This document shows, piece after piece, positions 18,937 through 43,227 of a DNA stretch of 64,000 nt (the stretch's first letter is position 1; each line of letters begins with the position of its first letter). This DNA comes from an uncultured Bacteroidales bacterium (lineage in GTDB: Bacteria > Bacteroidota > Bacteroidia > Bacteroidales > JAGOPY01). The notes beneath the pieces were generated by a model. It did no database searches, was not told the origin of the DNA, and saw only the letters and a program-made list of their open reading frames with translations. Position numbers and translations under genes: made by a program. The stretch spans positions 36,700-100,699 of the forward strand of contig CAWBCI010000060.1 of assembly GCA_963787195.1 (NCBI GenBank). Reading direction: 5' to 3'.

Positions 18937-21912
18937 CTATATTTCAGGCTTATAAATAACCCCCAGGTTTTTCCGCCCGTCAATTTCAACTTTCAGGGGC
19001 TTTTCAAAACGGATATGCCGGACCTGTTCATCTTCATAAACGCTGGGTAATTTTTGAAGAAATTCAAGGTCATAATACCCATCGTTCAGGAAGGGATTGA
19101 TTGTAAAATAGCCTACCCTGAAGGAGGTCAGGTTCTGGAAGAAATGAGTTCCCTGGCTGGGGTCGATCCTATAATCAGCCAATCCTGATTCGACAATCAC
19201 ACGGGCGCTGCTGATCTGTGACCATTTCACCGGGATACCCAGCCACGGATCCTGCGAACCCCAGCGCCCCGGACCAATCAGGATATAATTCTTATGTTCC
19301 CTGATGAACTGCTCATTCAACTTCCCGACTTTTTCGGCAAGTTCCGCATTATTGGCAGGATTGAAAGATTCAGGCCGGATATAGACCAGGTCGCAGATAT
19401 CAGTGATGGTCCCGTTTCCCAAGGCCGATTTACTGTAAATAATGCTGTCTTTATTTTTTACCTTGTCCAGATTGGTGGTAACGGTTTCCTTGTTATCAAC
19501 TATGGGCCTGATCTGCAAGAGATAGAATATTTTCGGCTCATTCGGGGGCCTGTTCAGGTCAACCGCGAATTCAATCTCCACCGGTTTACCCATTTCTTTC
19601 TGTCCGATATCAAGCACGGTCTCGAGAATTTCAGCCAGGGGGAAAGTATTATGTTTAAGGATATTCGAAAAAGTGATGATTTTCTTTCCTTCACTTTGAA
19701 CGCCGTCTCTTATGATATTATTTTGAAAATCATAGGTTGATGCGATCAACCTGAGGGAACCGTCTTTTTCGGCTTCCTTTATGGAAAGCTTCAAAATATT
19801 GACTCCATCGTCCACATCCGGTTTAAAACTTTCAGCCCTGAGGTCAAGTGCATAAAAATACTTCTGGGTCTCACGCAAAGCCATTTCAGGAGAATAAGTC
19901 TGGAGTACCCTTTTAGGATGCTTGGGTGAAAATCTCAGGGCAAGTCCCCCGTCAACGATATATTTTCCCAGCCCCAGGGCTATACTGGCTATGCCATCTT
20001 CGGGTTTTTCAGGTTCCAGGGGATAAAAATTGATGGACCGGGCAACCCCTGAGATGGAAGGATAAAACTTTTCTCCGTAACGGGTTCCGGCAACGATCTG
20101 CATTACAATTCCCATCTTCTCTTCGTCAATCACGTTGGAAGTGGCTGCCATGTATGCTTTGCTATCTTTAAAATAAGTAGAAGCGTACACGCTTTTAATG
20201 GCATTGCTGAGCATATCTATCATCTGCCTTTCACTATCCGGGATATAGGGGACCATATAGGTTGAATATATCCCGGCAAAAGGCTGGTAATGGGAATCTT
20301 CCAGGAGGCTTGACGACCTCACAGCGATAGGATTTCTGACGTAAGTAATAAGTGTATAAAGGTCTTCATGGATACGGAAAGGCAGCCGGGCCTGTACAAA
20401 TTCATTCAGGATCTCCTCATCGGAACGGTCTGAAAGCGCTATCTCATAGAGATTATTCTCCTCCATGAATTCATCGAAGATATCGGTTGAAAGCACTATG
20501 GTCCGGGGAATGGTGATGAATACATTGGGCCACTTCTCGAGTTTCCGGTTCCTTTTGATAAGCATGTCGAGAAATGCCAGGCCGCGGGCTTTACCGCCTA
20601 TGGAACCATCACCGATGCGGGTAAAAGTGAGGTACTCATCAAAACGGTCGCGGCGGAACTGGGCTATAACTCCCCTGGCCTTGCTGATCCTGAAACTGGC
20701 GAAAGCATCGAAAAGGTATCTCTTCACCTCATCCAGGTTCTCAAAATCATCCAGGGTGATATCGACTATCATTTCAGCCAATGGAAAAAGGGCCCTGGCG
20801 CGCAGCCATTTGGAAAACTGATTGCGGCTCAGCTGGTATTCAAGGGCATCATCAGGTACCTGGAATATCTTGTCCTGTATATTCTTCAGGTCATAGGCCC
20901 GGTCTATCTCCTTGCCGGTTTTGGGATCCACAAAAATAAAGTCCCCGAAGGCAAAATATTCCCGGATAAAATTCTTCAGTTCAATAGAAATTGTTTTGGA
21001 ATTTTTATTGATGAAACCCACATTCATTTCTTTCGCCAGGTTTTCAGCAGCAGGGTCGGAAGATTGCAGGAGCAGGGTCATGAATTTATCATCGCGCTGG
21101 ACTTTTTCACATAGCTTCAGGCCGGCATATTTATCCATTTTCCCATCCCTGGTATAGCTCATATCGGTGATGATCCCCAACAGATTGCGCTTATATTTTT
21201 CATAAAAGGAGATGGCTTCTTCGTAAGATGTAGCCAGGAGTATTTTCGGTCTCCCCCGCATCCTGAGCATTTGCTGGTGCTCATTCAGGCCTTCGGTCAT
21301 GAATTCCTTCGACTGTTTGAATATAATCTTGTAAATATTAGGGAGATAGCTGGAATAAAAGCGGATGGAGTCTTCCACCAGGATGATGGTCTGCACCCCG
21401 ACTTCTTTCACATCATGGTCCACATTCATCTTATCTTCAATAAGCTTGATGATGGCCAGTAAAAGATCCGCATTCCCAAGCCAGCAGAAAATATGATCGA
21501 TGATGCCTTTGGAATGTTCGCTCATGCGCAGGGTGACTTCCCGTGAAAAGGGGGTCAGCACTACGATAGGAATGGCAGGATATTGTTGCTTGATCTTTTC
21601 CGCCAGGCTGAAAGTGTCCATTTCTTCCGAACTGAGCATGGTGATGACCAGGTCTATATTCTCTTCTTTCAGGAGATCAAAGGCTTTTTTTTCAGAAGAA
21701 GCCAGGATAAACTGGGGAGGGTAGCGAAGGCTCAGCGACACGTATTCATTGAATATCTGCTCGTCGATACGCCCGTCATCCTCCAGCACAAAGGCATCAT
21801 AACTGCTGGAAATGAGCAGTACATGATAGATGCGTCTGCGCATCAGTTTATTAAATGAAGTATCGCTGAAGTAATATTTCGGGGCCCTGTAAGGGACCGT
21901 TGAATAAGGCAT
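18937..21912 (-). CDS. Receiver-domain / PPDK-type ATP-grasp protein (paralog 1), no PEP/pyruvate-binding barrel
   Basis: REC motifs LVED, ITD, QSS, FINK; ATP-grasp motifs IGGKARGL, AVRSS..ED..FAG, VEIEFA, LQIRP; C-terminal SQGTHFF; start at ATG 21912 after AGGAGG. Confidence 0.85.
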   Translation of the reverse strand: MPYSTVPYRAPKYYFSDTSFNKLMRRRIYHVLLISSSYDAFVLEDDGRIDEQIFNEYVSLSLRYPPQFILASSEKKAFDLLKEENIDLVITMLSSEEMDTFSLAEKIKQQYPAIPIVVLTPFSREVTLRMSEHSKGIIDHIFCWLGNADLLLAIIKLIEDKMNVDHDVKEVGVQTIILVEDSIRFYSSYLPNIYKIIFKQSKEFMTEGLNEHQQMLRMRGRPKILLATSYEEAISFYEKYKRNLLGIITDMSYTRDGKMDKYAGLKLCEKVQRDDKFMTLLLQSSDPAAENLAKEMNVGFINKNSKTISIELKNFIREYFAFGDFIFVDPKTGKEIDRAYDLKNIQDKIFQVPDDALEYQLSRNQFSKWLRARALFPLAEMIVDITLDDFENLDEVKRYLFDAFASFRISKARGVIAQFRRDRFDEYLTFTRIGDGSIGGKARGLAFLDMLIKRNRKLEKWPNVFITIPRTIVLSTDIFDEFMEENNLYEIALSDRSDEEILNEFVQARLPFRIHEDLYTLITYVRNPIAVRSSSLLEDSHYQPFAGIYSTYMVPYIPDSERQMIDMLSNAIKSVYASTYFKDSKAYMAATSNVIDEEKMGIVMQIVAGTRYGEKFYPSISGVARSINFYPLEPEKPEDGIASIALGLGKYIVDGGLALRFSPKHPKRVLQTYSPEMALRETQKYFYALDLRAESFKPDVDDGVNILKLSIKEAEKDGSLRLIASTYDFQNNIIRDGVQSEGKKIITFSNILKHNTFPLAEILETVLDIGQKEMGKPVEIEFAVDLNRPPNEPKIFYLLQIRPIVDNKETVTTNLDKVKNKDSIIYSKSALGNGTITDICDLVYIRPESFNPANNAELAEKVGKLNEQFIREHKNYILIGPGRWGSQDPWLGIPVKWSQISSARVIVESGLADYRIDPSQGTHFFQNLTSFRVGYFTINPFLNDGYYDLEFLQKLPSVYEDEQVRHIRFEKPLKVEIDGRKNLGVIYKPEI

Positions 21913-22045
21913 ATCTCCTCCTTTTAGATTTTTTGGCCGGACTATGCCGCTTTTTCCCCAGGCATTCATCCTCCGCAAATTTACTTAAAATTAGAAAGTT
22001 TTGTATATATCAGGATTTTGTATATTTATGCCAAAACTATCTATT

Positions 22046-23805: not shown

Positions 23806-24261
23806 TTAATTTTCCCTTAAAACATAATCATCATATTCTATTTCAAAACGCAACTTATGCCTTGATTCTTCCATGGACAGCGTAAGGAAAACTTCCTTTA
23901 ATTCATCATTGGGGGCTCTCTCGGCCAGGTTGGTATATAGCTTAAAAGCAGCCTTTTCCTTTTTCATCGCAAGGATGAGAGCCTCTTCATAAGACATGTT
24001 CGGGCTGGCAGTTACATTGACTATATAGTCGCTGATCTTTAAATCAGCCACATGCTGTTTGGGCATGGTAAAAATACCTTCCTCCCGGATTTGGGTAAGT
24101 CGGCTTTTATGCTTGATCTCTTCTCCGGCAAATTCGAGGAATACCTCTTTCATTTCTTCAGACTTCGACTGGGAAGCGAGTTCAGTATAGAAATCTACCG
24201 CCTTCTGCTCTTCGTTGATGGCAAATTCCAGAATATTGTCAACCGATGTGAATTCTTTCAT
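23806..24261 (-). CDS. Rubrerythrin/erythrin-type ferritin-like diiron protein (no rubredoxin domain)
   Basis: Two EExxH motifs (EEIKH, EESRH) preceded by E..A..FY helices. Confidence 0.88.
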   Translation of the reverse strand: MKEFTSVDNILEFAINEEQKAVDFYTELASQSKSEEMKEVFLEFAGEEIKHKSRLTQIREEGIFTMPKQHVADLKISDYIVNVTASPNMSYEEALILAMKKEKAAFKLYTNLAERAPNDELKEVFLTLSMEESRHKLRFEIEYDDYVLREN

Positions 24262-24272
24262 AGTATTCTGAA

Positions 24273-27200
24273 TTAATTGTTTTTAAATGCATTTTCAAAT
24301 TCGTCGTCGAAATATTTTACGATAGCATCGCAGCCGTAATCATACAACCTGTTATGGTTATCTTCCAGGGTATTCGCGAAAACATGCTTAGGATTTTCGG
24401 TTTTTTGTGGAAGGAGCGAAAGGGCCTCCTTTAAAACCTCGTCTACATCATCGACTTGTTTGCAACCAAGCTTGTTCAGAAGATCGGCAAGTTGCTGTAC
24501 GCCACTTTTCTCAATTTTGGATTTGAATTCAGGACTAAAAACCTGGATCATCTTCTGGGTATTGGTAAAACTACCGCCTGATTCCACCGGGAAACCGGCA
24601 GGCATGATCAGATCCGCATGCTTTGCTGTCTCCGTCATGAAATAATCCTGTACCATCACAAAATCGGAAATTGAAAGCCAGCCCGCAACCTGCACTTTAT
24701 GCCGCGTAGTCCCAAGAGGATCTTCCCCGAAAATGAAAAGATTCTTTAGTTTGCCGGCCTCCAGCCTGTCGTAGATATCAGTATGGATAGCAGAGGGTAT
24801 TTCCTTCACTTTCCATACTTTCTTTAATTTTTCAATATAATCAGGATCATTTACAGGAACCCCGCCAACTCCATAAGTCATGCACAATCCCATATCATGT
24901 AATCCCTGGGAATTATTTTTCTCCTTGAGGGCAATCAGCCCGCTGCTCGTCTTTCCAAGCTTGCCGGTGATCATAGCCAGGTTGAACAATCCGAGGGAAG
25001 CATTTGCTGAAATTTCCTTCTCCGAAAAAATAATAATGGCATTCATCTCATTATTATAATTCTTGGCAAATTCAATCACCTGATCCATAAACTCAACCCC
25101 TGCTTTCTGCACCAGGTCCACAAAATTTTCTTTCAGCAGATTTTGTTTATATTCTTCAAAACCTTCACAATTATCATTAATAAATAAAGCATTGTGGAAA
25201 TTATTGGCCACCAGGTAATAATTAACCGCCTTGATAAAGTGGTAATATGATTTGATCCTCATGATCCCATCCACTTTATGATCCATGGTGGTCTTATCTT
25301 TAATTGTAATCAATTCCACTGGAATATTATTCCGCAGACGGGAATTATTCACCATAAAACCGACCACGGCATTATCCTGGTTGATCTCTGAACCAATGAG
25401 ATATATCTTGCTGGCACCGCCGATCTGATCGAAAGGAACATTGGCCCTGGTATTATTCATATAACCCAATCCGCGTTTCAGGTAATGGAAGCTGGTCACA
25501 TTATTGGTCCCGGCGCCGGCACGGGCCAATTTCTGGATCAGATACTGTTCTTCATTGGTCAAACGGGCCCCGGCGAAAAACACATTGTCGTCGGCCGGAA
25601 CTGCTTTTATACGTTCTTTGATAAGTTCATAAGCTTTATCAAAGCTGATCTCCTCGAAACGGCCATTGACCTTCATCATAGGCTTGGTAATGCGGTTCCG
25701 GTCATTCAGGTAATGATAACCGAATTTAGCATAACGGCAAAGGTTCCCGTCAGTATTTACCATGCCGTCAAGTCCTGAAACCTGCATCACAAACTGACTT
25801 TTATGGTCAAGGGAAATTTTACATCCCACCGAGCAATAATTGCAGATCGTTTCGGCAGAATCCAGCTTCACAGGGCCGGGCTTGAAAATCACATTTTCAG
25901 TTATAGCACCTGTAGGACAGGTGGAGATGCACATCCCGCAGGATTCGCAGGTAGTATCCTGCAAAGCATCCCCCATACTCGGAGCTACATAGGTATCAAA
26001 TCCGCGGTTCACCAGGCCAAGGGCATCCGCACCAACAACTTCACGGCATATCCGGATGCAGCGGCTGCAGAGTATGCATTTATTACTGTCGATTTCGATA
26101 TAGGGATGCCTGAAATCCACAGAATATTCCCTGAAATCGCCTTTCAGATTTTCCTGGCTGGCGCCGTATTGAGAAGAATATTTTTTCAGGTCACATGTAT
26201 AGACTGCTGTACAACCACATTCGAGACAACGCTGGGTTTCATTTTGTGCTATTTCTTCGGAAGCATAGCCAAGTTCGACTTCAGTGAAGTTATTCCGTTT
26301 GGCCGGATCAAGTGTCGGCATCTCTTCCCTTTGCTGCTCAGGAAAAAATCCTTTGTATTCAGCCATTTCCTGAACTTTGAAATTATCTTTCCGGCTGAAA
26401 AATTCATTTTCAGGAGGAATGACGGGAGATTCTTTCAGGAAGAGATCACAAGAGTGTGAAGCCAGCTTGGCCTGTGCAATGGCCTGGATAAGGGTTGCGG
26501 GTCCCGTCACCCCGTCACCGGCGGCAAATATTGATTTTACACCGGTTTGAAGTGTTTTCGGGTCGGCTTCAATATCTCCCCAGCGGTTTACTTTCAACTC
26601 AGCCCCTTTGGAGACATTCTTATTGATATCATCCAGAAACTCAACAGCGGTTTTCTGACCGATGGCAGCCAGCACATAATCGACTTCCACTTCAAATTCA
26701 GAATCCGCCACAGGCACCGGCCTTCTTCTTCCGGATGCATCCGGCTCGCCCAATTCCATTTTAAGGCAGGTGATTGATTTTACTTTCCCCTTTTCATCCG
26801 GGTTTATACGGGTTGGATTTGTCAGGAGAAGATATTCAACCCCTTCCAGTTTGGATTCATGGATTTCGATGGGATTGGCAGGCATTTCATTTTCGGTACG
26901 GCGATAGATTACATAGACTTTATCAGCCCCGCAACGCATGGAAGTCCTGCAACAGTCCATGGCAGTATTACCACCTCCGATCACTGCAACTTTCTTCCCT
27001 TTAAAATCAAACTTCTCCCCTGTCATCTCCATATTTTTCAGGAAATCAATTCCGGAGAAAACGTTTTCAGCTTCTTCACCTTCGCATCCTATCATGGTCC
27101 CTTTCTGGGAACCTATACTCAGGATCACCGAATCATATTGAGTCTTCAGCTCTTTATAGGAGATATTTTCACCTAATTTTTTATTATAGAAGATATTCAC

Positions 27201-27980
27201 CCCCATTTCGGTGATGTTATCCACTTCTTTCTGGAGCAGGTCATTCGGCAGGCGATATTCGGGGATCCCGTATCTGAGCCATCCTCCGGCTTTTGGGCTA
27301 CCCTCGTAGATATCAACCTGGTGTCCTTCTTTCTGAAGGAAGAATCCGGCAGAAAGACCTCCCGGACCGGCACCGATCACAGCAACTTTTTTCCCTGTTG
27401 AAGCTTTGATTTCCGGCATCCACTTATCTTCCGACATAAGATCGATGTCTGAAGCAAAGCGCTTCAGGTAATCGATTCCAACCGCAGCTCCTTCGTCCAG
27501 CAGGTTCCTGCGGCAAGCCACTTCACAGGGCCTCACGCAAACCCTGCCGCAGATGGCGGGCAGAGGGTTGGTTTCCTTGATAAGGGCAACAGCTTCGTGA
27601 TACTGGCCTTTTTCAATATGTGAGATATATCCCTGCACATCTACGCCCGCCGGGCAGGTTTGTTTACAAGGGCCGATACAGTCAGCATAATGGTTGCTCA
27701 CCAGCAGGTCAAGTGCCGTTTTGCGGGCTTTCTTCACCTTCTCGTTCTGGGTATCTATCTTCATACCCTCCGAAATCTTCGTGGAACAGGAGGGCTGCAA
27801 TCCGCGCATACCTTCCACTTCCACCACACAGACATAACAGGAAGTATAGGGTTGCAGCCTTTTATCATTGCAAAGGGTCGGGATTTCTATCCCATGCCGG
27901 TTTGCAAGCTGAAGTATGCTTTCCCCCTTGATACCCTGGACTATATCTCCATTCAGAATTATATTTACTTTTTCGATCAT
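24273..27980 (-). CDS. StnC/BfuA-like subunit: [2Fe-2S] + GltD/NfnB-like FAD/NADP module + NuoG-like [4Fe-4S] domain + cofactor-less molybdopterin-fold domain
   Basis: IPTLC..CYVCVVE..C; CKQTCP, CGRVCVRPCE; GAGPGG; GGGNTAMD; CILCSRC, CESCGMC; CNYCSVGC; FDH catalytic Cys/Sec site replaced (GTNNVTSFHY). Confidence 0.85.
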   Translation of the reverse strand: MIEKVNIILNGDIVQGIKGESILQLANRHGIEIPTLCNDKRLQPYTSCYVCVVEVEGMRGLQPSCSTKISEGMKIDTQNEKVKKARKTALDLLVSNHYADCIGPCKQTCPAGVDVQGYISHIEKGQYHEAVALIKETNPLPAICGRVCVRPCEVACRRNLLDEGAAVGIDYLKRFASDIDLMSEDKWMPEIKASTGKKVAVIGAGPGGLSAGFFLQKEGHQVDIYEGSPKAGGWLRYGIPEYRLPNDLLQKEVDNITEMGVNIFYNKKLGENISYKELKTQYDSVILSIGSQKGTMIGCEGEEAENVFSGIDFLKNMEMTGEKFDFKGKKVAVIGGGNTAMDCCRTSMRCGADKVYVIYRRTENEMPANPIEIHESKLEGVEYLLLTNPTRINPDEKGKVKSITCLKMELGEPDASGRRRPVPVADSEFEVEVDYVLAAIGQKTAVEFLDDINKNVSKGAELKVNRWGDIEADPKTLQTGVKSIFAAGDGVTGPATLIQAIAQAKLASHSCDLFLKESPVIPPENEFFSRKDNFKVQEMAEYKGFFPEQQREEMPTLDPAKRNNFTEVELGYASEEIAQNETQRCLECGCTAVYTCDLKKYSSQYGASQENLKGDFREYSVDFRHPYIEIDSNKCILCSRCIRICREVVGADALGLVNRGFDTYVAPSMGDALQDTTCESCGMCISTCPTGAITENVIFKPGPVKLDSAETICNYCSVGCKISLDHKSQFVMQVSGLDGMVNTDGNLCRYAKFGYHYLNDRNRITKPMMKVNGRFEEISFDKAYELIKERIKAVPADDNVFFAGARLTNEEQYLIQKLARAGAGTNNVTSFHYLKRGLGYMNNTRANVPFDQIGGASKIYLIGSEINQDNAVVGFMVNNSRLRNNIPVELITIKDKTTMDHKVDGIMRIKSYYHFIKAVNYYLVANNFHNALFINDNCEGFEEYKQNLLKENFVDLVQKAGVEFMDQVIEFAKNYNNEMNAIIIFSEKEISANASLGLFNLAMITGKLGKTSSGLIALKEKNNSQGLHDMGLCMTYGVGGVPVNDPDYIEKLKKVWKVKEIPSAIHTDIYDRLEAGKLKNLFIFGEDPLGTTRHKVQVAGWLSISDFVMVQDYFMTETAKHADLIMPAGFPVESGGSFTNTQKMIQVFSPEFKSKIEKSGVQQLADLLNKLGCKQVDDVDEVLKEALSLLPQKTENPKHVFANTLEDNHNRLYDYGCDAIVKYFDDEFENAFKNN

Positions 27981-28010
27981 TAACGTTTGGAATTTAAAGC
28001 GTTAAACTTT

Positions 28011-29789
28011 TTAATAGAGCCGTATCGCGTTAAACTTACATTTTGTATAGCACATACCGCATTTAATGCAGGCGTCCTGCCGGATGAAATGTATCCCTTT
28101 GCGCTCCCCGTCAATGGCATCGACCGGGCAATTTTTCGCGCAGACAGTACATCCGGTACAATTTTCCGGGACTACTTCATAAGTCAATAGAGGTTTGCAG
28201 GCTTTCGCCGGGCATTTTTTATCATAGATATGAGCTTCATATTCATTTCTGAAGTAGCGGATAGTGGTCAGTACCGGGTTAGGCGCAGTCTGTCCCAATC
28301 CGCAGAGCGAATTATCCTTGATCTCATATGCAAGGTCTTCCAGCCTTTCGATGTCACCGGGCTCACCTTTTCCTTCGGTAATCCTGGTGAGGATTTCCAG
28401 CATCCTTTTAGTTCCTACCCTGCAGAATGTACACTTGCCGCAGCTTTCCTTCTGGGTAAAGTCAAGGAAGAACTTAGCCACATCGACCATACAGGTATCT
28501 TCATCCATGACGACCATACCTCCCGAACCCATGATGGCGCCGGTTGCATTCACCGAATCATAATCGACTATAGTGTGCACCAGATGTTCCGGGATACAGC
28601 CGCCGGAAGGGCCTCCCATCTGGACAGCCTTGAATTTCTTATTTCCCTGTATGCCCCCTCCAAGTTTAAAGATCACATCCTCTATGGTCATTCCCATGGG
28701 AACTTCCACCAGTCCTGAACGTTTGATCTTCCCGGCTAAGGCAAACACCTTGGTACCTTTGCTCTTCTCGGTCCCGTATTTAGCATAGGCCTCGCCCCCG
28801 TTGGTGATTATCCAGGGTATATTGGCAAAGGTTTCGACATTATTGATATTGGTAGGTTTTTTCCAGAGCCCCGATGCAGCCGGAAAAGGCGGGCGTTTCC
28901 GTGGCATTCCCCTCTCCCCTTCAACCGAAGCGATCAAGGCGGTTTCTTCACCGCAGACAAAAGCTCCGGCTCCTTCTTTAATATAAATATCCAGGTTAAA
29001 GCCTTCTATTCCTAATATATTTTTTCCGAGATAACCTTTGGCCCTGGCCTGCCCCAGTGCAATATTAAGACGTTTGATAGCCAGCGGGTATTCGGCCCTG
29101 CAGTAGATGACCCCGCCTGTAGCTTCGATGGCATAGGCCGCGATGATCATGCCTTCGACCACGCTGTGGGGATCACCTTCCAGGACCGAGCGGTCCATGA
29201 AAGCACCAGGGTCGCCTTCATCAGCATTGCAGATGATATACTTTTCGTCGGATTTATTATTGCTGGCGAATTTCCATTTCAGGCCGGTCGGGAAACCTCC
29301 GCCGCCACGGCCCCTCAAACCCGAACTCAGGATAGTTTGTATCACATCCATGCGCGACATTTGTTGTCCTGCAATCTTCTTGATGGCCCTGTATCCATTC
29401 CGGGCTTCATATTCTTCAATGCTTTCAGGATCGATGTAACCACAATTTCTCAGGACTATCTTAACCTGTCCTTCAAGGAAAGTTTTATCCACCGTCTCCA
29501 CTATGTCCGACTTCACAATGTATTCGTTGACAGGAGTATTCTGATGGATATGCTTTTCGATGATTTCAATGATCTTTTCTTCATTGACTTCGCCATAGAG
29601 GTAAGAACCCGATTCATCGATAATCTCAACCAGGGGTTCGCGATAACACATCCCTACGCAGCTGGTCTTTTTGAGTTCAATGTCGAGATTTTCCGCCTTT
29701 TTCAGCGCTTCTATCTTTGCATATACCTTATTGGCCCCGGCTGCTATTCCGCAGCTTCCCAATCCCACTATAACTTTGGTTAATTCCAT
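28011..29789 (-). CDS. StnB/HydB/NuoF-like FMN NADH-binding subunit
   Basis: GRGGGGFPTG.KW, CNADEGDPGAFMDR, GGPSGG, SCGKCTFCR..C, C-terminal 2x[4Fe-4S]. Confidence 0.93.
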   Translation of the reverse strand: MELTKVIVGLGSCGIAAGANKVYAKIEALKKAENLDIELKKTSCVGMCYREPLVEIIDESGSYLYGEVNEEKIIEIIEKHIHQNTPVNEYIVKSDIVETVDKTFLEGQVKIVLRNCGYIDPESIEEYEARNGYRAIKKIAGQQMSRMDVIQTILSSGLRGRGGGGFPTGLKWKFASNNKSDEKYIICNADEGDPGAFMDRSVLEGDPHSVVEGMIIAAYAIEATGGVIYCRAEYPLAIKRLNIALGQARAKGYLGKNILGIEGFNLDIYIKEGAGAFVCGEETALIASVEGERGMPRKRPPFPAASGLWKKPTNINNVETFANIPWIITNGGEAYAKYGTEKSKGTKVFALAGKIKRSGLVEVPMGMTIEDVIFKLGGGIQGNKKFKAVQMGGPSGGCIPEHLVHTIVDYDSVNATGAIMGSGGMVVMDEDTCMVDVAKFFLDFTQKESCGKCTFCRVGTKRMLEILTRITEGKGEPGDIERLEDLAYEIKDNSLCGLGQTAPNPVLTTIRYFRNEYEAHIYDKKCPAKACKPLLTYEVVPENCTGCTVCAKNCPVDAIDGERKGIHFIRQDACIKCGMCYTKCKFNAIRLY

Positions 29790-29825
29790 TTTCAGCTTGA
29801 ATTATGTTGGCCCGTCAGGCCCTCA

Positions 29826-30353
29826 TTAATTGCTTTGTTTTATTTCGTTTATGCGGAAATTTTTAAGTATCCTGACAGCAGAGGTGCCATTCAGCTTGCC
29901 AAAGGTTTCATCCCCTATGCTCATCACCGGAGCCAGCGAGCAGCAACCCAGGCAGGCCACCGATTCGAGGGTAAATAGGCCATCTTCGGTGGTTTCACCG
30001 TCATTCACTTTAAGGGCTTCCTTCAGGGAATCAGTAATGGTGTTGGCGTTCTGCACATGGCAGGCCGTACCGTGACAAACTTTGATGATATGTTTTCCGA
30101 CAGGCTTCAGGCGGAACTGGGCATAAAAGGTTGCAACACCATACATTTCACTAAGCTCCAAACCTGTATCCTCTGCCAATTTTTCAAATGCCTCTCTCGG
30201 GATATAGCCAAACAGGTTTTGTATCCCCTGGAGAAGCGGGATGACGGCACCCTTTTTGCCTTTATATTTTTTAATCAGAGGATCAATGAGAGCCAGGTCA
30301 ATTTGATCCTGTTTCTCCCTGATTTCAATCTGTTTTATTCTTTCAATTCGCAT
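29826..30353 (-). CDS. StnA/HydC/NuoE-like [2Fe-2S] subunit
   Basis: VATFYAQF, CHGTAC, CLGCC.LAP. Confidence 0.93.
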   Translation of the reverse strand: MRIERIKQIEIREKQDQIDLALIDPLIKKYKGKKGAVIPLLQGIQNLFGYIPREAFEKLAEDTGLELSEMYGVATFYAQFRLKPVGKHIIKVCHGTACHVQNANTITDSLKEALKVNDGETTEDGLFTLESVACLGCCSLAPVMSIGDETFGKLNGTSAVRILKNFRINEIKQSN

Positions 30354-30595
30354 AATTCCGACGTATTTAACGGCGGTAAAATTATGCAAAGTTTTACGGA
30401 TAGAAGGCCCTGAAAATCAATTTATAGTTAGTCTAAATTATTTATATTTAATTGATTATACGATATTTATAATGATGACTTATGCATCATATCTAAATTG
30501 ACAGATACAGACCTGAATTTTTTGTGAAATGATTAACAGAAAGGAGGGATATAAGAATTCAGAATTATCATGCAACCTTTAACACAGGGACTACC

Positions 30596-30733
30596 AGATC
30601 CCTCCTGCGTCGGGACGATCTTTGGGAGGTTCTTATAAAATGGGCGGGTCGGCCTTTGAAAATTCAAAGGCCGACCCGCCCATTTCTTCTAAAAAACTTC
30701 TTTGCCGTCATCCCGAACGTATGTGAGGGATCT
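30596..30733. repeat. REP-like composite: two inverted GTCATCCCG..GGGATCT-type units around a perfect 23-bp hairpin
   Basis: Hairpin arms 30638-30660 and 30663-30685; units at 30596-30619 and 30707-30733. Confidence 0.8.
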
Positions 30734-30784: not shown

Positions 30785-32596
30785 TCACTTCCCCCCCTTC
30801 TTCCTGGCCGGCTTCTCAGCCGAAAGCTTTGCGTGCATCGCATTAGCTGCAATACGCCCGGCCCCCATGGCCTGGATAACAGTAGCGGAACCTGTAACTA
30901 TATCCCCACCGGCATACACATTTTCCATAGTGGTTTCCATGGTTTCAGGATTGGCTTCGACATAGCCCCATTTATTCCGTTTTACTTTAGGAGAAGACTG
31001 GAAGATCACCGGGTTGGGCCCGTTTCCTATAGCTACGATCACCATATCACATTCCTCTATAAAATTCGAACCTTCGATAGGTACCGGTCTTCTTCTTCCG
31101 GAGGCATCAGCTTCCCCGAGTTTCATGCGGATACATTCTATTGCCTTCACTCTGTTGGTATCCGTACCTATGTATTTTACGGGATTTGTAAGTAGTTTGA
31201 ATTTGATCCCTTCCTCTTCCGCGTGGTGCACTTCCTCAGCCCTGGCAGGCAGCTCGTGACGGGAACGGCGATAGACAATAGTAACATCCGAACAGCCGGT
31301 CCGTTTTGCAGTCCTTGCACAGTCCATAGCGACATTTCCACCGCCAAGTACCACCACGCTGGAAGCTTTTGGCATAGGGGTGTCATATTCAGGAAATTTA
31401 TAGGCTTTCATCAGGTTCATACGGGTCAGGTACTCATTTGCAGAGAAAACATTTCCAAGGCTTTCCCCCTCGATGCCCATAAATACAGGCAAACCTGCTC
31501 CAACACCGATATAAACCGCATCGAAATTTTCCAGCAATTCTTCCACGGTAAATATATTTCCGATTACGTGGTTCAGTTCAAACCTGACGCCCATCTGTTT
31601 CAGGTAATCGATCTCAAATTGCACAATGGCTTTGGGCAGCCTGAATTCGGGGATGCCATAGGTTAAAACCCCTCCGGTTTCATGCAAAGCCTCGAACACG
31701 GTAACACTGTAACCCAGTTGCCGCATGTCGGAGGCAACGGTCAGTCCGCCCGGACCTGAACCCACTACCGCGATTTTCTTACTTGTATTTGCGCTGATCA
31801 TGGGGACTTTCACCAGGTCCATCTTGCGTTCGTAATCAGCCACGAAACGCTCGAGCCGTCCAATAGCTACAGGGTCATCTTTCACCCCCATTATGCATTT
31901 ACTCTCGCATTGGGCTTCCTGCGGACAAACCCTGCCGCAGATAGCAGGGAAAACATTTCTTTCCTTGATCTTCTTCGCGGCAGCATCAAATTCACCTTCC
32001 GAAACCAGGGCGATGAATGAAGGAATATCTACATTTACCGGACAACCGGTTACACAAAGCGGGTTCTTGCATTGCAGGCAACGCCCGGCTTCCAGAAGGG
32101 CAAGCTCGGAGGTAAAACCATAGGGTACTTCCTGGAAATTATGCACCCTGAGTGTCTGGTCCTGCTCAGGCATGGCCTGGCGCGGAATTTTCAGCTTGAT
32201 ATGGCGCTCGTCCTTTTTGCTCAGGCCGTGCCATTCGCAACCATATTTGGTGCAGATGTAAAAGTGGATCAGCTTCGATAGAGCTGAGATAGTTACCTGG
32301 GCCACATCCGATCCACATTCCCCGCATTTCACTTCCTTGCTTATAAGGCTCACGCCGCAGTGGGGACAAAGCAAATCATCCACCTTATCCCCTTTATCAA
32401 TCGGGACAGAGGTTTCCACCTCGAATACATCAAGGTAAGGACTCAGGTAAAGATCAATAGTCTCCCCTTTATATCTGGCTTTGAATTCAATTTGTTTGTG
32501 ACTCTTCTTATCTACATTGAAAGAGTTCTGGCAGTGAGGGCAGTAGGTGTTAAGATAAGTCTTAAACTTTAGGTATTTTACATCCAGGTCAAGCAT
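30785..32596 (-). CDS. nfnB: NfnB (SudA/GltD-like) large subunit with an extra N-terminal 8-Cys domain
   Basis: RCLQCKNPLCVTGCP, CGRVCPQEAQCE, GSGPGG, YGIPEFRLP, GGGNVAMD; ~130 extra N-terminal residues. Confidence 0.85.
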   Translation of the reverse strand: MLDLDVKYLKFKTYLNTYCPHCQNSFNVDKKSHKQIEFKARYKGETIDLYLSPYLDVFEVETSVPIDKGDKVDDLLCPHCGVSLISKEVKCGECGSDVAQVTISALSKLIHFYICTKYGCEWHGLSKKDERHIKLKIPRQAMPEQDQTLRVHNFQEVPYGFTSELALLEAGRCLQCKNPLCVTGCPVNVDIPSFIALVSEGEFDAAAKKIKERNVFPAICGRVCPQEAQCESKCIMGVKDDPVAIGRLERFVADYERKMDLVKVPMISANTSKKIAVVGSGPGGLTVASDMRQLGYSVTVFEALHETGGVLTYGIPEFRLPKAIVQFEIDYLKQMGVRFELNHVIGNIFTVEELLENFDAVYIGVGAGLPVFMGIEGESLGNVFSANEYLTRMNLMKAYKFPEYDTPMPKASSVVVLGGGNVAMDCARTAKRTGCSDVTIVYRRSRHELPARAEEVHHAEEEGIKFKLLTNPVKYIGTDTNRVKAIECIRMKLGEADASGRRRPVPIEGSNFIEECDMVIVAIGNGPNPVIFQSSPKVKRNKWGYVEANPETMETTMENVYAGGDIVTGSATVIQAMGAGRIAANAMHAKLSAEKPARKKGGK

Positions 32597-32606
32597 AGCA
32601 TCAATT

Positions 32607-33431
32607 TTATCGGATCGAAAACAATAATGAATCTTTTTCTTCTTTCAGATAGAGTGAATTGCGGTTCATGAGCTCGTCGAAATCCACAAGCTGGCCGTCG
32701 AAGTCAGGGCCGTCAACGCAGCAGAACTGAGTAGCTCCGTCAACTTTAACCCTGCATCCTCCGCACATCCCCGTACCATCAATCATGACAGGATTCAGGC
32801 TTACCATCGTCTTCACATTGTATTTTTTAGTAAGCTTCACAATGTTTTTCATCATGATTATGGGGCCAATGGCGTATACCAGTTTGATATCATAACGTTC
32901 ATCCAGGTATTTTTTCAGCGGGTCGGTGACGAAGCCTCTGATACCGTGACTCCCGTCATCAGTTGTGACGACCAGTTCATCGCTGATAAATCCCATTTCC
33001 CTTTCAAGTATGAGGAGTTCCTCATCTTTTGCACCTATGATGCTGATCACGTTATTTCCCGCTTCCTTGAAAGCCTTGGCAACATGGTGCAAAATGGCGA
33101 CGCCGGTTCCACCCCCGATCATAACCACTGTTCCGAGGTTTTCCACTTCAGCCGGGCGTCCCAGGGGGCCTACCACATCCCTGATCAAATCGCCTTCTTT
33201 AAGAGAGCGCATCAGGGCCGTGGTTTTTCCCACAACCTGGAAAATGATGGAAATCGTCCCTGCAAATTCATCTTTATCAGCCACGGTCAGTGGGATTCTT
33301 TCACCTGTCTCATTCACACGGATGATCACAAATTGACCCGCTTTCACTTTGCGGGCGATTTTTGGTGCATTCAGGTCGAAGCGGACGATCGTCCCTTTGG
33401 CCATTTCCTGTCTCCTTACAATCTGGAACAT
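32607..33431 (-). CDS. nfnA: NfnA (SudB-like) small subunit
   Basis: GQFVI, ERIPLT, GPLG, MIDGTGMCGGCRV..CVDGP Asp-ligated [2Fe-2S] motif. Confidence 0.9.
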   Translation of the reverse strand: MFQIVRRQEMAKGTIVRFDLNAPKIARKVKAGQFVIIRVNETGERIPLTVADKDEFAGTISIIFQVVGKTTALMRSLKEGDLIRDVVGPLGRPAEVENLGTVVMIGGGTGVAILHHVAKAFKEAGNNVISIIGAKDEELLILEREMGFISDELVVTTDDGSHGIRGFVTDPLKKYLDERYDIKLVYAIGPIIMMKNIVKLTKKYNVKTMVSLNPVMIDGTGMCGGCRVKVDGATQFCCVDGPDFDGQLVDFDELMNRNSLYLKEEKDSLLFSIR

Positions 33432-33499
33432 CTTTTAGATTTATTAGTTAGCATTCAGATTTGTTCTTCATTCACAAAAATTGATTGCCTGAGGAATTT

Positions 33500-34366
33500 C
33501 TACCACTCCAGGCTGTCTTCCAGCCGGATCTCATTCAGGTCCTCCCCGCTCAGCCCATGCCATTTGCAACCTTTCTTGGTACAGAGATAAAAGTCAATCA
33601 GTTTGGTCCGGGCAGTTACGGCGATCCGGGCAACCGGTGATCCGCAACGACCGCAGGTTTTATCCTTTACGATCAGGCTTTTATCGCAATGCCAGCATTT
33701 AACATCGCTGACCACCTTATCTTCCGGAAGGAAAACAGTGGATTTTGAAGAGAAAACATTCAAATATGGACTGAGCATCAGCACCCCTTCTTCCCCATTA
33801 CGGATCTTCAGCTTCAGCATCTCATCTTCTATCAGTGATTTCCGGCAATAAGGGCAATAGGTCTGCAGGAAAGCGCCTGTTTCAATGATTTCACTTGTTT
33901 CATTTTTCGGGGCGACCTCCACCGGAGTCTCCTGCGCTCTTCTTACCGGCCTGACACCTTTAGCACCAAAGCCGTATTCCTGGTAAAGTTTTTTCAGGGC
34001 CACTGAAAGATCGTCAAACTCAACAAAGTGGCCTTTACAGCCGCTCCGTGAGCAGATGCTGACCTTTCCTCCCATGTCCAGGTAAAAAGGCGCCATGGGC
34101 GCCCCACAGGTCATACATTCAGTATTGGAAGTAATTTCTTCCTCACAATGAGGGCAATAGAAATGTGCGATCTCATCTTTTGGAAGATCAATAGTTGATT
34201 TGAAATTATAACTCCCATAGATGGAACTCAGCCATATGGTTCCTTTTTCACCCTTACACTCGATATTCAGCATAATGCTCGGCTCATTATCGATCTTTTG
34301 CTCGTGTTCCATCAGGGATTTGCCACATTTGGGGCATTTTAGCTTAAGCGACATCAGTTCATACAT
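33500..34366 (-). CDS. Cys-rich hypothetical protein with two 8-Cys/1-His domains
   Basis: C11/14/71/74/84/87/105/110/H113 and C171/174/224/227/238/241/262/267/H270; first gene of the nfn operon. Confidence 0.85.
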   Translation of the reverse strand: MYELMSLKLKCPKCGKSLMEHEQKIDNEPSIMLNIECKGEKGTIWLSSIYGSYNFKSTIDLPKDEIAHFYCPHCEEEITSNTECMTCGAPMAPFYLDMGGKVSICSRSGCKGHFVEFDDLSVALKKLYQEYGFGAKGVRPVRRAQETPVEVAPKNETSEIIETGAFLQTYCPYCRKSLIEDEMLKLKIRNGEEGVLMLSPYLNVFSSKSTVFLPEDKVVSDVKCWHCDKSLIVKDKTCGRCGSPVARIAVTARTKLIDFYLCTKKGCKWHGLSGEDLNEIRLEDSLEW

Positions 34367-39765: not shown

Positions 39766-42700
39766 CTAATCACTCTCCCACGTAATCACCGCCAGCCTCT
39801 TCTTCCCGTCCATACTGACCGTAATGGGTTTTTTAAAGCGGACATGCCTGAAGTACTTGGTTTTTGAAACCAGCTCCTGTGCATCCAGGATATCATACCG
39901 GATAAAACTTTTCGATATCTCAGGTTGAACGCTTAAGTAGCCGACACTCATAGATACCACATTGTGAAAGAAATGCGAACCGGATGATTCGTCCAGGGGA
40001 TAGCCTTCAAGGCTGGTCTCGACAATGACTTTTGCATTGGAGATCTGGGCCCAGTTTACCGGGATCCCTATCCAGCGATCGCGGGTACCCCAGCGACCGG
40101 GGCCTATCAAAATATACTTCCTGTGATCCGCGCTAAATTGCTTGTTTAACTCTTCGATCTCATCCGCCATTTGAAGTGTCGCAGCCTTATCAAAATATTC
40201 TTTATCTATATAAATCACATCCTGAATATTCTCCAGCATACCATTGCCCATGCACTTTTCAGACAATAATAATATCCTTTCCTTAGGAAAGCGATCCATA
40301 TTGACATTATAATCCGTAGCGCTTCCGATCAGGGGTTTTATCTGCAAAAGATAAAACGAAGCCCGGTTCTGTTTATCCTTATTCAGGTCGACGGCAAATT
40401 CAATCTCCACCGGCGAACCCATGGCCTCTTTGACTACATCCAAAACCACCTCAATTGCCTGTGCCAGCGGGACATAATTATATTTCAGGATATTCGCAAA
40501 ATTTACAATCCGCGGGCCGGCATGTGTCAGTCCTGGGATTATGACATTATTATTGGGATCATAAACTGAGGCACAGTGCTTAAGTGTACCTTGTATTTCA
40601 GCCATATCGATATCCAGCCTGGCCAGTCCGGCCGTATCTCCCTCCATCAGGTTGATATCCTTTTTCCCAAGGTCAACGGCATAGAACTCCACCTGTGAAT
40701 TCAGGAACTGGTCTTTAGAGGAACTGATCTCCACATCCGGGTATTTGGGCGAAAAACGATAGGCCTTTTCACCATCCACCACATATTTCCCCAAGCCGAC
40801 CGCGGTCACGGCGAAGCCTTCATCGGGCTTCATATGGGCATAAGGATAGAAATTATATGATTGGGCAACACCGCTGATATGCGGATAGAAATAATTACCG
40901 AATTTATTCCCGACCACTTCCTGTATGACCACCGCCATCTTTTCCTCTTCTATCTTATAATTAACCGCTTCGATATAGCCCCTGGCATCATCGGAATAAA
41001 CCGAAGCATAAACCAGCTTTATAGCATCCATAACTTGTTTCAGCCTGACCTTAGGGTCGGGATGGCTATTGGGCAGAAGATAAGTTTCGAATATACCGGC
41101 AAAGGGCTGCATCAGAGAATCCTCAAAAAGCCCGGAAGACCTGATGGCCAGGGGTTTCTTAATTTTCATTAAAAGAGTCCTCAGACGCTTTACAAGGGTA
41201 TCGGTGAGCTTGCCTTCCAGGAAAACTTTTTTGACTTGATCGTAATCTGGATTTGATGCCAGGAAATCCCTTAATGAATTCCTTTCAATAAAATATTCAA
41301 ATTCCTCGGTCCCTATCACCGATGTTTTGGGAGAAATAATGTTGATATTCGGGACTTGTTGTGAAAAATCAACGTTTTGAATGAGGGAGTTCACAAATGC
41401 AAGACCCCGGCCTTTTCCTCCGAGAGAACCTTCGGCCAGGCTCACCACATTCGTTTCGTCATTAATGGCCGATTCTTCAAAGGGAATGATCTTACCCTGA
41501 TTCTGTTCGTTCCGGAAACGCCGGATGACTTCAATAAGATAATCACGGATAGACTGGGGGTCATCAAAATCGGTAACCTTATGAGGGTTGAGAATCTTGG
41601 CTGCCTGTATCTCCCCTCTGGCCATCAGCCAGAGTGAAAAATGATCACGCCGGGCATGATAGAGGAGCGACTCGTCGGGTATGGTCTCCAGAAATTTTTC
41701 AAATTCCCTGAGTGACCTGGCCTCCGCAATTTTCACCCCCTTTTCGTTCCGGTAAACGAAATTTCCAAATCCCAGGAAATGGGTGATAAAACTCTTGAAA
41801 TCCTGGCTCAGGGACTCTGAATTTTTATTTATGAAAGTGCATTTGAAGTCAAATGCCATTTTGGCATTTGATTCATCCGAAGATTGAATAATGATAGGCA
41901 GGTCTTTTATTTGACCCCTGGCATATTTCACCAGGTTGAATCCGGCCGATTCGTCTTCATTTCCGTCCTTCTGGAACTTTACATCTGTAATAAGACATAA
42001 GAGGAAGTCACGGTATCTGTCAAGGATATCCACCGCCTCTTCATACGTTGAAGCCAGTAATATTTTGGGCCGGGCCCTGAGCCGGAGGACCTTGTATAAT
42101 TCGTCGGTACTCACATCGTCAATGATCCTCTTGGTCTGTTCCAGCACGATATAATAAAGCATGGGAAGGTAGCGGGAAAAATATTTGGGCGAGTCCTCCA
42201 CAAGTAATATAACCCTCACCATCCCAAATTCTGTATCATTTTCAACATTGATCCGGTCCTCCACATGTTTGATCATTGCAAAAAACACCGAGGATTCCCC
42301 GTTCCAGATAAATACCTTGTCGATATGTTCAAGGGCATTTTTGGTCTCACTTATGAGGACCATATCCGAATTATTATTCAGCAAAAGAAAGACAGGGATA
42401 TAGGGGAATTCCCTTTTGACCTTACAACTCAGCCCTATGGGAGTCCGTTTGTCGGCCCCCATCATGAGGATGATCAGATCGAAATGCTTGGTCCGGATCT
42501 GACCCATAGCTTCTTCGATGGATGAAACCCCGGTGATTCTTGGGATCGATGTCAGGTTCAGCTGATTATATTCGCCCAGCACATGTTCCGAAAAACGTCC
42601 TTCCTTCTCTATACTATAAGCATCATACAAATTAGCCACCAGCAAAATCTCCTTAACTTTGAAAGGCATCAGGTCATGGTAAATATCCCGGTCCTGGTTG

Positions 42701-43227
42701 CTTTTATTCAGGAAGCGCTGCAGTAACTGCCGGCTGCTGACACCCGGAATTTGCACGTCAGCAGGAGGTGGGACCGGAACCTGGGTCCTTCCCTTTATAA
42801 TGGATTTGGCCAGGATACTATTTATGTAACCCGTGATAATATTGCAGAGGTTTTCAATCAGGTGTCTCTCTTCCAACAAAAAAGGCCCTTCATCCATATC
42901 CGGAAATTTCCGGAGATAATAGATCTCAATAGCACCGCTTTTATTGTCAATGGTCTGGAATTTCTGTCTTTGCACCCACTGGGTCGGGGCAAAATCGGAT
43001 GAGTTGTATTCCTTGCCATCATAGAGGATACGGGCGACGGTAAACTGAGGGTACTGCCATGCCGGAGGAAGTATAATGCAGATCTGACGGAGGGTTTCTT
43101 CAACCGATTTACCTTCCTTTATGATCTGGGTAGTCCGGTTAATGGCTGCCAGCTCTTTTAATCGCTCTATATTTTCAGCCCTGAGTTTCTGATATTTATT
43201 ATTGCTGTTTCCGGTGTTGTCTGTCAT
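39766..43227 (-). CDS. GAF-like + receiver + PPDK-type ATP-grasp protein (paralog 2)
   Basis: N-terminal ERLKEL..PPAWQYP..ARI..GPFL.EER; LVED, ITD, QSS, FINK; LGGKGRGL, IRSS..ED..FAG, LQIKP; SSGSHFF. Confidence 0.85.
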   Translation of the reverse strand: MTDNTGNSNNKYQKLRAENIERLKELAAINRTTQIIKEGKSVEETLRQICIILPPAWQYPQFTVARILYDGKEYNSSDFAPTQWVQRQKFQTIDNKSGAIEIYYLRKFPDMDEGPFLLEERHLIENLCNIITGYINSILAKSIIKGRTQVPVPPPADVQIPGVSSRQLLQRFLNKSNQDRDIYHDLMPFKVKEILLVANLYDAYSIEKEGRFSEHVLGEYNQLNLTSIPRITGVSSIEEAMGQIRTKHFDLIILMMGADKRTPIGLSCKVKREFPYIPVFLLLNNNSDMVLISETKNALEHIDKVFIWNGESSVFFAMIKHVEDRINVENDTEFGMVRVILLVEDSPKYFSRYLPMLYYIVLEQTKRIIDDVSTDELYKVLRLRARPKILLASTYEEAVDILDRYRDFLLCLITDVKFQKDGNEDESAGFNLVKYARGQIKDLPIIIQSSDESNAKMAFDFKCTFINKNSESLSQDFKSFITHFLGFGNFVYRNEKGVKIAEARSLREFEKFLETIPDESLLYHARRDHFSLWLMARGEIQAAKILNPHKVTDFDDPQSIRDYLIEVIRRFRNEQNQGKIIPFEESAINDETNVVSLAEGSLGGKGRGLAFVNSLIQNVDFSQQVPNINIISPKTSVIGTEEFEYFIERNSLRDFLASNPDYDQVKKVFLEGKLTDTLVKRLRTLLMKIKKPLAIRSSGLFEDSLMQPFAGIFETYLLPNSHPDPKVRLKQVMDAIKLVYASVYSDDARGYIEAVNYKIEEEKMAVVIQEVVGNKFGNYFYPHISGVAQSYNFYPYAHMKPDEGFAVTAVGLGKYVVDGEKAYRFSPKYPDVEISSSKDQFLNSQVEFYAVDLGKKDINLMEGDTAGLARLDIDMAEIQGTLKHCASVYDPNNNVIIPGLTHAGPRIVNFANILKYNYVPLAQAIEVVLDVVKEAMGSPVEIEFAVDLNKDKQNRASFYLLQIKPLIGSATDYNVNMDRFPKERILLLSEKCMGNGMLENIQDVIYIDKEYFDKAATLQMADEIEELNKQFSADHRKYILIGPGRWGTRDRWIGIPVNWAQISNAKVIVETSLEGYPLDESSGSHFFHNVVSMSVGYLSVQPEISKSFIRYDILDAQELVSKTKYFRHVRFKKPITVSMDGKKRLAVITWESD

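Follow-up and report, generated by a model that had tools for sequence, protein, structure and literature searches.

The 64,000-nucleotide stretch analysed here, called the window below, is part of contig CAWBCI010000060.1 from an uncultured Bacteroidales bacterium. Its minus strand carries a three-gene unit in which the two genes of an NfnAB-type enzyme follow an open reading frame (ORF) for a 288-amino-acid (aa) protein, ORF288, and in which one cysteine-rich domain occurs three times. ORF288 (33500–34366) is the first gene and consists of two domain copies, repeat 1 (residues 1–135; 33962–34366) and repeat 2 (residues 160–288; 33503–33889), joined by a linker of about 25–35 residues. After a gap of 68 bp comes the nfnA-like gene (32607–33431; 274 aa), with FAD/NAD-binding domains and a [2Fe-2S]-binding domain, and 10 bp beyond its end the nfnB-like gene begins (30785–32596; 603 aa). 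Residues 139–594 of its product are the usual NfnB core, preceded by an extra N-terminal domain (residues 1–138; 32183–32596) that is the third copy.

Scanning all six frames of the window with the regular expression CxxC-x(45-60)-CxxC-x(8-11)-CxxC-x(15-22)-CxxxxCxxH returned exactly three matches, at 34028–34336, 33557–33856 and 32228–32542. Ligand positions are C11/14/71/74/84/87/105/110/H113 in repeat 1 (spacers 56/9/17), C171/174/224/227/238/241/262/267/H270 in repeat 2 (spacers 49/10/20) and C19/22/77/80/91/94/115/120/H123 in the NfnB copy (spacers 54/10/20). The original prediction, made by reading the window alone, had reported this eight-Cys/one-His pattern twice in ORF288 and once at the N-terminus of NfnB, and the residues of the NfnB copy were as it gave them, the spacers of all three copies falling within its ranges. 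It had also placed the NfnB copy closest to repeat 2, in agreement with the identities we obtained, 46% to repeat 2 versus 22% to repeat 1. Aligned, the three copies have 23 invariant columns, all eight Cys and the His among them, and a family profile of 51 sequences, run on the window's own genome, scored them at E 1e-30 to 1e-51. Because of these invariant columns, identities and profile scores, we take the three copies to be homologous beyond their shared pattern. The same profile search located a fourth copy in this genome, a single-domain protein of 136 aa on a different contig.

The enzyme to which the domain is attached is of a known kind. The NfnA-like protein matched the Pfam families DHODB_Fe-S_bind, NAD_binding_1 and FAD_binding_6 and the NCBIfam model NF004862 (388 bits, cut-off 220). 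NfnB matched Fer4_20 (E 4.4e-43, residues 150–259) and Pyr_redox_2 (E 2.7e-35, residues 274–580), as well as TIGR01316 (578.7 bits, cut-off 471.75). Its full-length likeness is to solved NfnB chains: residues 5–462 of the 468-aa Thermotoga maritima NfnB (4ylf_B) align to 139–594 here (E 2e-167), and residues 8–474 of Pyrococcus furiosus NfnI (5jca_L) align to 139–595 (E 7e-144). With Fer4_20, an FAD/NADPH domain, this likeness and an adjacent nfnA, NfnA and the NfnB core are, judged by sequence, ordinary members of the NfnAB family. Since both solved chains start at residue 139 of the window's protein, residues 1–138 are an addition; characterised NfnB proteins do begin without such a domain, as the original prediction had stated.

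Family libraries recognised the domain through generic models only. Four zinc-ribbon models in Pfam passed just over their cut-offs (DZR, 30.5 versus 27.3 bits; Zn_ribbon_3, 28.3 versus 27; Zn_Ribbon_1, 27.4 versus 25; and Zn_ribbon_6), and a further generic match was to positions 109–173 of the methionyl-tRNA synthetase (MetRS) model, at 22.8 bits. Nothing in NCBIfam exceeded a cut-off, and the 51-member profile searched against PDB sequences gave only chance matches to C2H2 fingers (CPxCGKSF) and nothing else below E 0.01. The domain thus has neither a dedicated Pfam or NCBIfam model nor a sequence relative among solved structures. No description of it was found in the literature searched, most subscription journals being outside that search.

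Relatives are nonetheless numerous in sequence databases. Among 1177 candidates of 158–504 aa, 658 were homologues of ORF288 at E ≤ 1e-3. Most of the 120 matches listed were unnamed; those named by NCBI, from Bacteroidales/Bacteroidota, were all called 'hypothetical protein', and JGI rows carried automatic zinc-finger or zinc-ribbon names and, once, 'methionyl-tRNA synthetase'. We rejected the MetRS fragment that these automatic JGI and Atlas names would imply: only the knuckle part matches (profile positions 109–173 of 391), and ORF288 is two 130-residue domains. A profile of the three window sequences, scored against 1.84 billion representative proteins, matched 369 at E ≤ 1e-3, 172 at ≤ 1e-10 and 23 at ≤ 1e-30, most of them single-domain proteins of 125–160 aa. 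Named members and Atlas clusters pointed to Bacteroidota, Ignavibacteriota, Elusimicrobia, Aminicenantota, Acidobacteriota (Thermoanaerobaculia), Cloacimonadota, candidate division CSSED10-310 and Planctomycetota. More distant relatives were also seen. Proteins of 160–183 aa align over profile positions 8–119 at E about 1e-17, with CYCPNGHN replacing the first knuckle (L061 8008–8490, L075 9298–9804), and others of 131–217 aa, mostly about 135–150, align over positions 8–83 only, at E 1e-6 to 1e-9, in many genomes.

Conservation was counted over 135 domain copies from the 150 representatives listed. Cys occupies each of its eight columns in 126–135 of the 135 copies (93–100%), and His its own column in 111 (82%); outside the ligands, conservation is also seen for L (86%), S (81%), R (76%) and G (85%). 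The two-metal-type pattern proposed at the outset is consistent with these counts, eight near-invariant Cys being what two Cys4 sites would be expected to leave. Paired CxxC knuckles and an all-beta predicted model place the domain among zinc-ribbon/rubredoxin-like Cys4 proteins. The three window copies are an undescribed family: an all-beta domain of 125–135 residues with two nested Cys4 sites, the outer pairing CxxC with CxxxxCxxH and the inner pairing CPxC with CxxC.

AlphaFold2 run on the NfnB N-terminal domain with the family alignment gave a confident model of ten beta strands and a short C-terminal helix (predicted local distance difference test score, pLDDT, 90.1; predicted template modelling score, pTM, 0.82). 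Foldseek found nothing in the PDB at E ≤ 0.001 for this model, the best match being at E 0.057, and an exhaustive structure aligner found nothing above Z 3.3. The weak neighbours were the C-terminal domain of LGP2 (Z 3.0; root-mean-square deviation, rmsd, 5.7 over 73 aligned residues), RIG-I (Z 2.8), Mis18a/Yippee (Z 2.7), TFIIS/Rpb9 ribbons (Z 2.2–2.5), MsrB1 (Z 2.2) and residues 121–186 of Pyrococcus abyssi MetRS (Z 2.3, rmsd 3.9, 59 residues aligned); DRH-3 took Foldseek ranks 2, 3 and 6 at E 0.1–0.3. Because by the aligner's own note Z values under 8 are common, we assigned no fold.

Subtypes were read from a quick tree in which 85 of 156 inner branches were unresolved. All 14 tandem second repeats and all seven NfnB-fused copies fell into one group, with a support of 94 in the Shimodaira–Hasegawa-like approximate likelihood ratio test (SH-aLRT). 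Thirteen of the 14 tandem first repeats lay in a large division together with free-standing, NuoE-, CBS- and kinase-linked copies. Repeat 2 of ORF288 and the NfnB domain are therefore of one subtype, the NfnB type, which fits a paired origin; repeat 1 is of the general type. Free-standing 136-aa homologues are 47–50% identical to ORF288.

The trio ORF288-nfnA-nfnB was present at all seven NfnB-fusion loci examined from the window's family. Four genomes of another class have, judged by coordinates only, a tandem protein, then about 0.9 kb, then the NfnB domain. Downstream of the trio, Stn genes followed at five of the seven loci (the window's own genome, G403, G405, G408 and G402) and were not found in the 8–11 kb examined in G406 and G413. 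Genome G402 also has a second ORF288 paralogue, tail to tail with another cluster (L085 3405–11237) of StnA-like, StnB-like, 798-aa NuoG-like and NfnA-like genes and a 487-aa NfnB-like gene whose product has no N-terminal domain. In these results the domain emerges as a family of its own, new and nameable, inside the broad zinc-ribbon-like class, and the trio as a three-gene variant of NfnAB.

In the window the Stn-like genes form a Bfu-type NfnABC/StnABC-like unit on the minus strand (24273–30389), adjacent to the trio and separate from it. Its NuoE-like gene (29826–30389) has a NuoE-type domain at E 5.6e-50. The NuoF-like gene (28011–29789; 592 aa) matches 9n5u_B at E 2.1e-259 and 8oh5_B at 4.3e-257, and also 9bov_B. 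A 1235-aa protein (24273–27980) with 2Fe-2S, GltD-like and NuoG/Fdh-like parts matches 9bov_A at E 7e-236, 8oh5_C at 1.1e-230 and 9n5u_A at 4.7e-185. NuoE-like, NuoF-like and GltD-plus-NuoG-like subunits are thus all there and all near the solved complexes. The unit closes with a gene for a ferritin-like/rubrerythrin-like protein of 151 aa (23806–24261, minus strand) that has no rubredoxin domain of its own and matches NCBIfam weakly and below cut-offs (ferrit_encaps, E 1.2e-8; rubrerythrin, E 4.4e-4). An NfnAB unit of the NfnSL type (30785–33431) and a Bfu-type NfnABC/StnABC-like unit, transhydrogenases of unrelated design, lie side by side.

Between the two, about 100 bp past the nfnB stop, is a perfect palindrome at 30640–30683 with a 20-bp stem containing 13 G-C pairs, followed on the minus strand by TTTTAT. 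It looks like an intrinsic terminator ending the three-gene unit, and because of this hairpin we read the region as two probable transcription units, the trio and the Stn-like genes. The original prediction had made ORF288 the first gene of an operon, which holds for the trio and not for an operon that would include the Stn genes. The whole spacer from nfnB to the Stn-like unit is 395 bp, of which the 250 bp between hairpin and NuoE-like gene are A+T-rich. Within it, after the hairpin and about 130 bp upstream of the NuoE-like gene, TTGTGAAATGATTAACAG at 30522–30539 differs by two mismatches from the Rex operator consensus; scanning the window with that consensus gave 10 matches at three or fewer mismatches versus 4.9 expected, which overall is not significant. 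Farther out, the region is flanked by two paralogous minus-strand ORFs of 1013 and 1153 aa (18937–21978 and 39766–43227) that share long stretches, and a homologue of this pair lies upstream of an orphan ORF288 in G412 (L072 5070–8027).

The domain-coding part of nfnB was matched by contigs from a metatranscriptome library of salt-marsh origin (run X8): three were identical, over 32303–32472, 32444–32551 and 32522–32604, and one had four differences over 32522–32625. The library matched only 7 of 30 bins, as contigs, so parts without coverage are uninformative. We take this as a weak hint that the domain-coding part of nfnB is expressed, carry-over of DNA being possible. In metagenome DNA runs from salt marsh and soil, the share of sampled words present was at most about a quarter, and no run reached half.

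Fusions to enzyme subunits recur. Of 362 candidates of 331–1056 aa, 288 clusters were NfnB fusions at E ≤ 1e-5; those with a name are called 'NADPH-dependent glutamate synthase' and come from Bacteroidota, Ignavibacteria and Cloacimonadota. A Pfam scan of 20 multi-domain representatives placed a thioredoxin-like [2Fe-2S] domain of the NuoE type N-terminal to the domain in six, one of them with a receiver domain as well; NfnB-type proteins or fragments with Fer4_20 accounted for four, a CBS pair for four and no recognised partner for four, and there were single cases of an adenylate cyclase with AAA_16 and of a Mur-ligase middle domain. The domain was present in 16 of 301 genomes in the phylum sample of a Planctomycetota metagenome-assembled genome and in 42 of 301 genomes in the class of G461. 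Across these two samples 17 of 20 loci examined had a NuoE fusion, with a NuoF-like gene next in all 17, in many of them fused to a GltD-like part to give about 1060 aa; HoxU-like and GltB-FMN-like genes were within range in 13. These loci (L117–L127 and L130–L135; for example L134 5689–12051) have a conserved four-gene operon in which the Glu_synthase-FMN-domain protein is 527–570 aa long. Its NuoE fusion, NuoF, HoxU and Glu_synthase-FMN genes look like those of a Bfu-type enzyme, so far undescribed, with a GltB-like subunit at its centre.

Free-standing copies have redox neighbours of other types. The class of G461 again provides examples: a domain gene of 133–162 aa stood beside a four-gene operon at 18 of 20 loci, the operon (assigned by Pfam on one locus and two variants and extended to the rest by BLAST) encoding a GlcD-like FAD protein with Fer4, two Fer4 plus Glu_synthase-FMN proteins and an 810-aa GXGXG protein. 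The domain gene comes after the operon at these GlcD/GltB-like loci (L097–L115; for example L104 155–7765), and a [NiFe] hydrogenase is often within 3 kb. At 7 of the 20 no more than about 0.6 kb separates the domain gene from the contig end, a sign that a repeat may follow. In G406 an Mvh-type [NiFe] hydrogenase operon ends with a paralogue, placed after the large-subunit gene; by Pfam the operon also encodes the small subunit, MvhD, an HdrA-like protein and a Fer4 protein. A paralogue is placed in the same way in G412. In G444, from another family of the order, the domain gene comes first, followed by genes for a selenocysteine-containing FdhA, split at its Sec codon, and for NuoE fused to NuoF.

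The 136-aa free copy of the window's genome is located between hypE and hypB, with hypF, hypD and HoxF-like and HoxU-like genes nearby and HoxH just beyond; eight relatives have the same placement (L056–L059, L062, L067, L068, L071). A Rex-like gene, named from reading its sequence, adjoins the hyp cluster on contig C87 (L005 10773–11432). The position between hypE and hypB could mean that the small proteins act transiently in cofactor insertion or complex assembly, as HypA does for nickel. Two other copies adjoin selenium-utilisation genes, by sequence reading only, and there is a weak match to the zinc-ribbon part of HypA (Pfam PF01155; E 7e-4, 20 bits versus a cut-off of 28.9, profile positions 68–99 only). 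Permanent fusions to NfnB and NuoE argue instead for a stable part of an enzyme, and a true HypA is encoded elsewhere in the window's genome at 113.6 bits, which rules out the hyp-linked copy as its replacement. A role as an assembly or maturation factor is, in our estimate, quite improbable.

Taken together, the three fusions and several unrelated operon types indicate that the family is probably an accessory of iron-sulfur flavoprotein electron-transfer complexes. A match to a well-characterised family unrelated to redox complexes would have counted against the original prediction; none was found, and the repeated NfnB and NuoE fusions and the operons for NAD-linked and Mvh-type [NiFe] hydrogenases, an NAD-linked formate dehydrogenase and GltB-like enzymes point the other way.

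Signalling proteins form another set of hosts. Of 400 other genomes sampled from the window's phylum, 25, belonging to other classes, carry the domain. At each of 20 loci examined (L036–L055; for example L036 8459–10333) it occupied about residues 425–565 of a protein of 616–637 aa, and the three of these proteins scanned with Pfam were all HAMP-HisKA-HATPase_c histidine kinases. The HATPase_c match resumes at profile position 31–35 after the domain, which is therefore inserted in the ATP-binding domain; no paper on histidine kinases with this domain was found in the literature searched. The inner, fold-defining metal site is kept in these copies and the outer site is degenerate, the first knuckle reading C-P-K-x-H and the fourth being lost in many. 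The domain could be a redox or ligand sensor, in which zinc-thiolate sites, or a pocket lined by the conserved LSxxYG, CSRxGC and His residues, respond to oxidants or a metabolite and thereby turn the enzyme, kinase, cyclase or CBS protein they are attached to on or off. Besides the kinases, the proteins that join the domain to CBS pairs, to the AAA_16 cyclase or to NuoE with a receiver domain would fit such a switch, as would the conservation of the His and of the four non-ligand positions, and the Rex-type gene beside the hyp-linked copy. Signalling fusions are however a minority of representatives, and the kinase copies are one clade (SH-aLRT 99), suggesting a single insertion event. We regard sensing as an unlikely general function.

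The redox contexts are also those of an electron carrier. Two rubredoxin-like Cys4 iron sites might extend the low-potential branch of the enzymes, and the free and tandem proteins would then be soluble carriers. Every enzyme context is an electron-transfer complex, and the fusion points adjoin cluster domains: Fer4_20, which has two [4Fe-4S] clusters and feeds ferredoxin, starts at NfnB residue 150, and 2Fe-2S_thioredx comes just before the domain in NuoE fusions. Also in favour is the ferritin-like/rubrerythrin-like protein that ends the Stn-like unit and lacks a rubredoxin domain. Rubredoxin genes (hoxR, hupI) occur in [NiFe]-hydrogenase clusters. Against iron stand the absence of the Pfam rubredoxin family among matches at E ≤ 0.1 and the degenerate outer site of the kinase copies. 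There is a precedent in TA0289, a CBS protein fused to an iron-binding zinc-ribbon domain, as described in the part of PMC7521041 consulted; TA0289 itself was absent from the PDB matches of the family profile at E ≤ 10. On balance an iron carrier is possible, though doubtful. A wider version of it makes the domain a two-iron rubredoxin-like module: a built-in low-potential acceptor on NfnB and NuoE and, in anaerobic Bacteroidota, Planctomycetota and other phyla, an unrecognised class of soluble carrier of 15 kDa, or 32 kDa in tandem form, that connects NfnAB, Stn/Bfu enzymes, hydrogenases, formate dehydrogenases and GltB-like enzymes, with the kinase, CBS and cyclase copies reading the same redox pool. 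This scheme we think fairly unlikely.

We tentatively favour a zinc-stabilised docking or assembly module, an interpretation to which we give somewhat less than an even chance. Both Cys4 sites would hold structural zinc and the domain would be a rigid module for docking or assembly. ORF288 would be an adaptor subunit whose repeat 2 pairs with the N-terminal domain of NfnB, of the same subtype, leaving the general-type repeat 1 free for another partner, which could be a second NfnAB protomer, the neighbouring Stn-type enzyme or ferredoxin. Docking is favoured because most knuckle domains are structural, because kinase copies tolerate loss of the outer site and because two subtypes occur in one operon; an electron path through two fixed centres would be harder to reconcile with partial loss of the outer site than a structural role is. 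Some NuoEFG-type modules have accessory subunits with zinc, such as NDUFS6/NUMM of complex I, and no homology of the domain to this analogue was found.

Several observations weigh against docking. All of the redox contexts would be expected equally for a small iron-based electron carrier, and the histidine-kinase, CBS-pair and cyclase contexts suggest signalling rather than docking. Some free-standing copies (L064, L066, L069, L116) have no redox neighbour in the range examined, and most of the synteny was counted among relatives, where counts from one family or class are not independent. Genomes G401, G409 and G412 keep an ORF288 homologue (67–70% identity) and have no NfnB orthologue, only StnC-like GltD matches; conversely, G453 (L074) and G558 (L136) have nfnA and the nfnB fusion and no adjacent ORF288. 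Given exceptions in both directions, the partnership of ORF288 with NfnB is not obligatory. Structure prediction gave little to set beside this: full-length NfnB with a 12-row alignment was modelled poorly (pLDDT 58.2, pTM 0.46), and a complex of NfnB (12 rows) with ORF288 (40 rows), predicted with controls not included, scored 0.00 against a mark of 0.32, which speaks neither for nor against binding. The three-component Nfn envisaged in the original prediction is thus upheld in part: the trio is conserved at seven of seven loci, and on the other side the Stn genes are a separate unit, orphans occur in both directions and the domain is not specific to Nfn.

Flavin-based bifurcating enzymes such as NfnAB and Bfu have been studied intensively, and their components are generally regarded as known. 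Here a conserved, confidently folding domain, unnamed in the family libraries, is attached in three separate ways to subunits that bear terminal clusters. A docking role would predict that transhydrogenases and hydrogenases join in supercomplexes or higher-order assemblies; with iron bound, the domain would be a new site of electron entry or exit and would define a new carrier family. On either reading, a family model would correct several hundred annotations that now read 'hypothetical protein' or 'NADPH-dependent glutamate synthase'.

Among known folds, the C-terminal domains of RIG-I, LGP2 and DRH-3 and the Yippee/Mis18 and MsrB proteins are zinc-pinned beta domains that recur as structural neighbours; scores to them are far too low to establish a common fold, and they have one zinc site, not two. 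With zinc-ribbon and rubredoxin-like Cys4 knuckles, including those of the MetRS connective peptide, the domain studied here shares four knuckles of the CxxC type, the inner pair nested in the outer. It differs from them in having 49–56 beta residues between knuckles 1 and 2, for a domain of 130 residues, and in lacking a synthetase domain, and no family model spans its whole length. HypA is likewise a small zinc-knuckle protein of hyp clusters, and the family has a weak match to its zinc-ribbon part, which however stays below the Pfam cut-off. HypA begins with a nickel-binding MHE, and the N-terminus of the hyp-linked copy is MPKVV.

Bfu enzymes contain intrinsic structural zinc sites, according to the passages on zinc in PMC11829005. 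The domain studied here is found fused to the NuoE-like subunit of such enzymes. The published sites, by contrast, are inside BfuB rather than in a separate domain, and the same zinc passages mention neither an extra domain nor a third gene (PMC11829005). For Nfn itself, a 2019 survey of architectures distinguished four patterns, A–D, and its main text, so far as consulted, contains no mention of zinc or of a third subunit (PMC6405883). The window's proteins match the NfnAB/NfnSL enzymes of T. maritima (4ylf) and P. furiosus (5jca) over the full length of NfnA and over residues 139–594 of NfnB, with the order nfnA-nfnB. They depart from them in two respects: NfnB has 138 extra N-terminal residues that contain the two-metal-type domain, and a third gene, ORF288, lies upstream.

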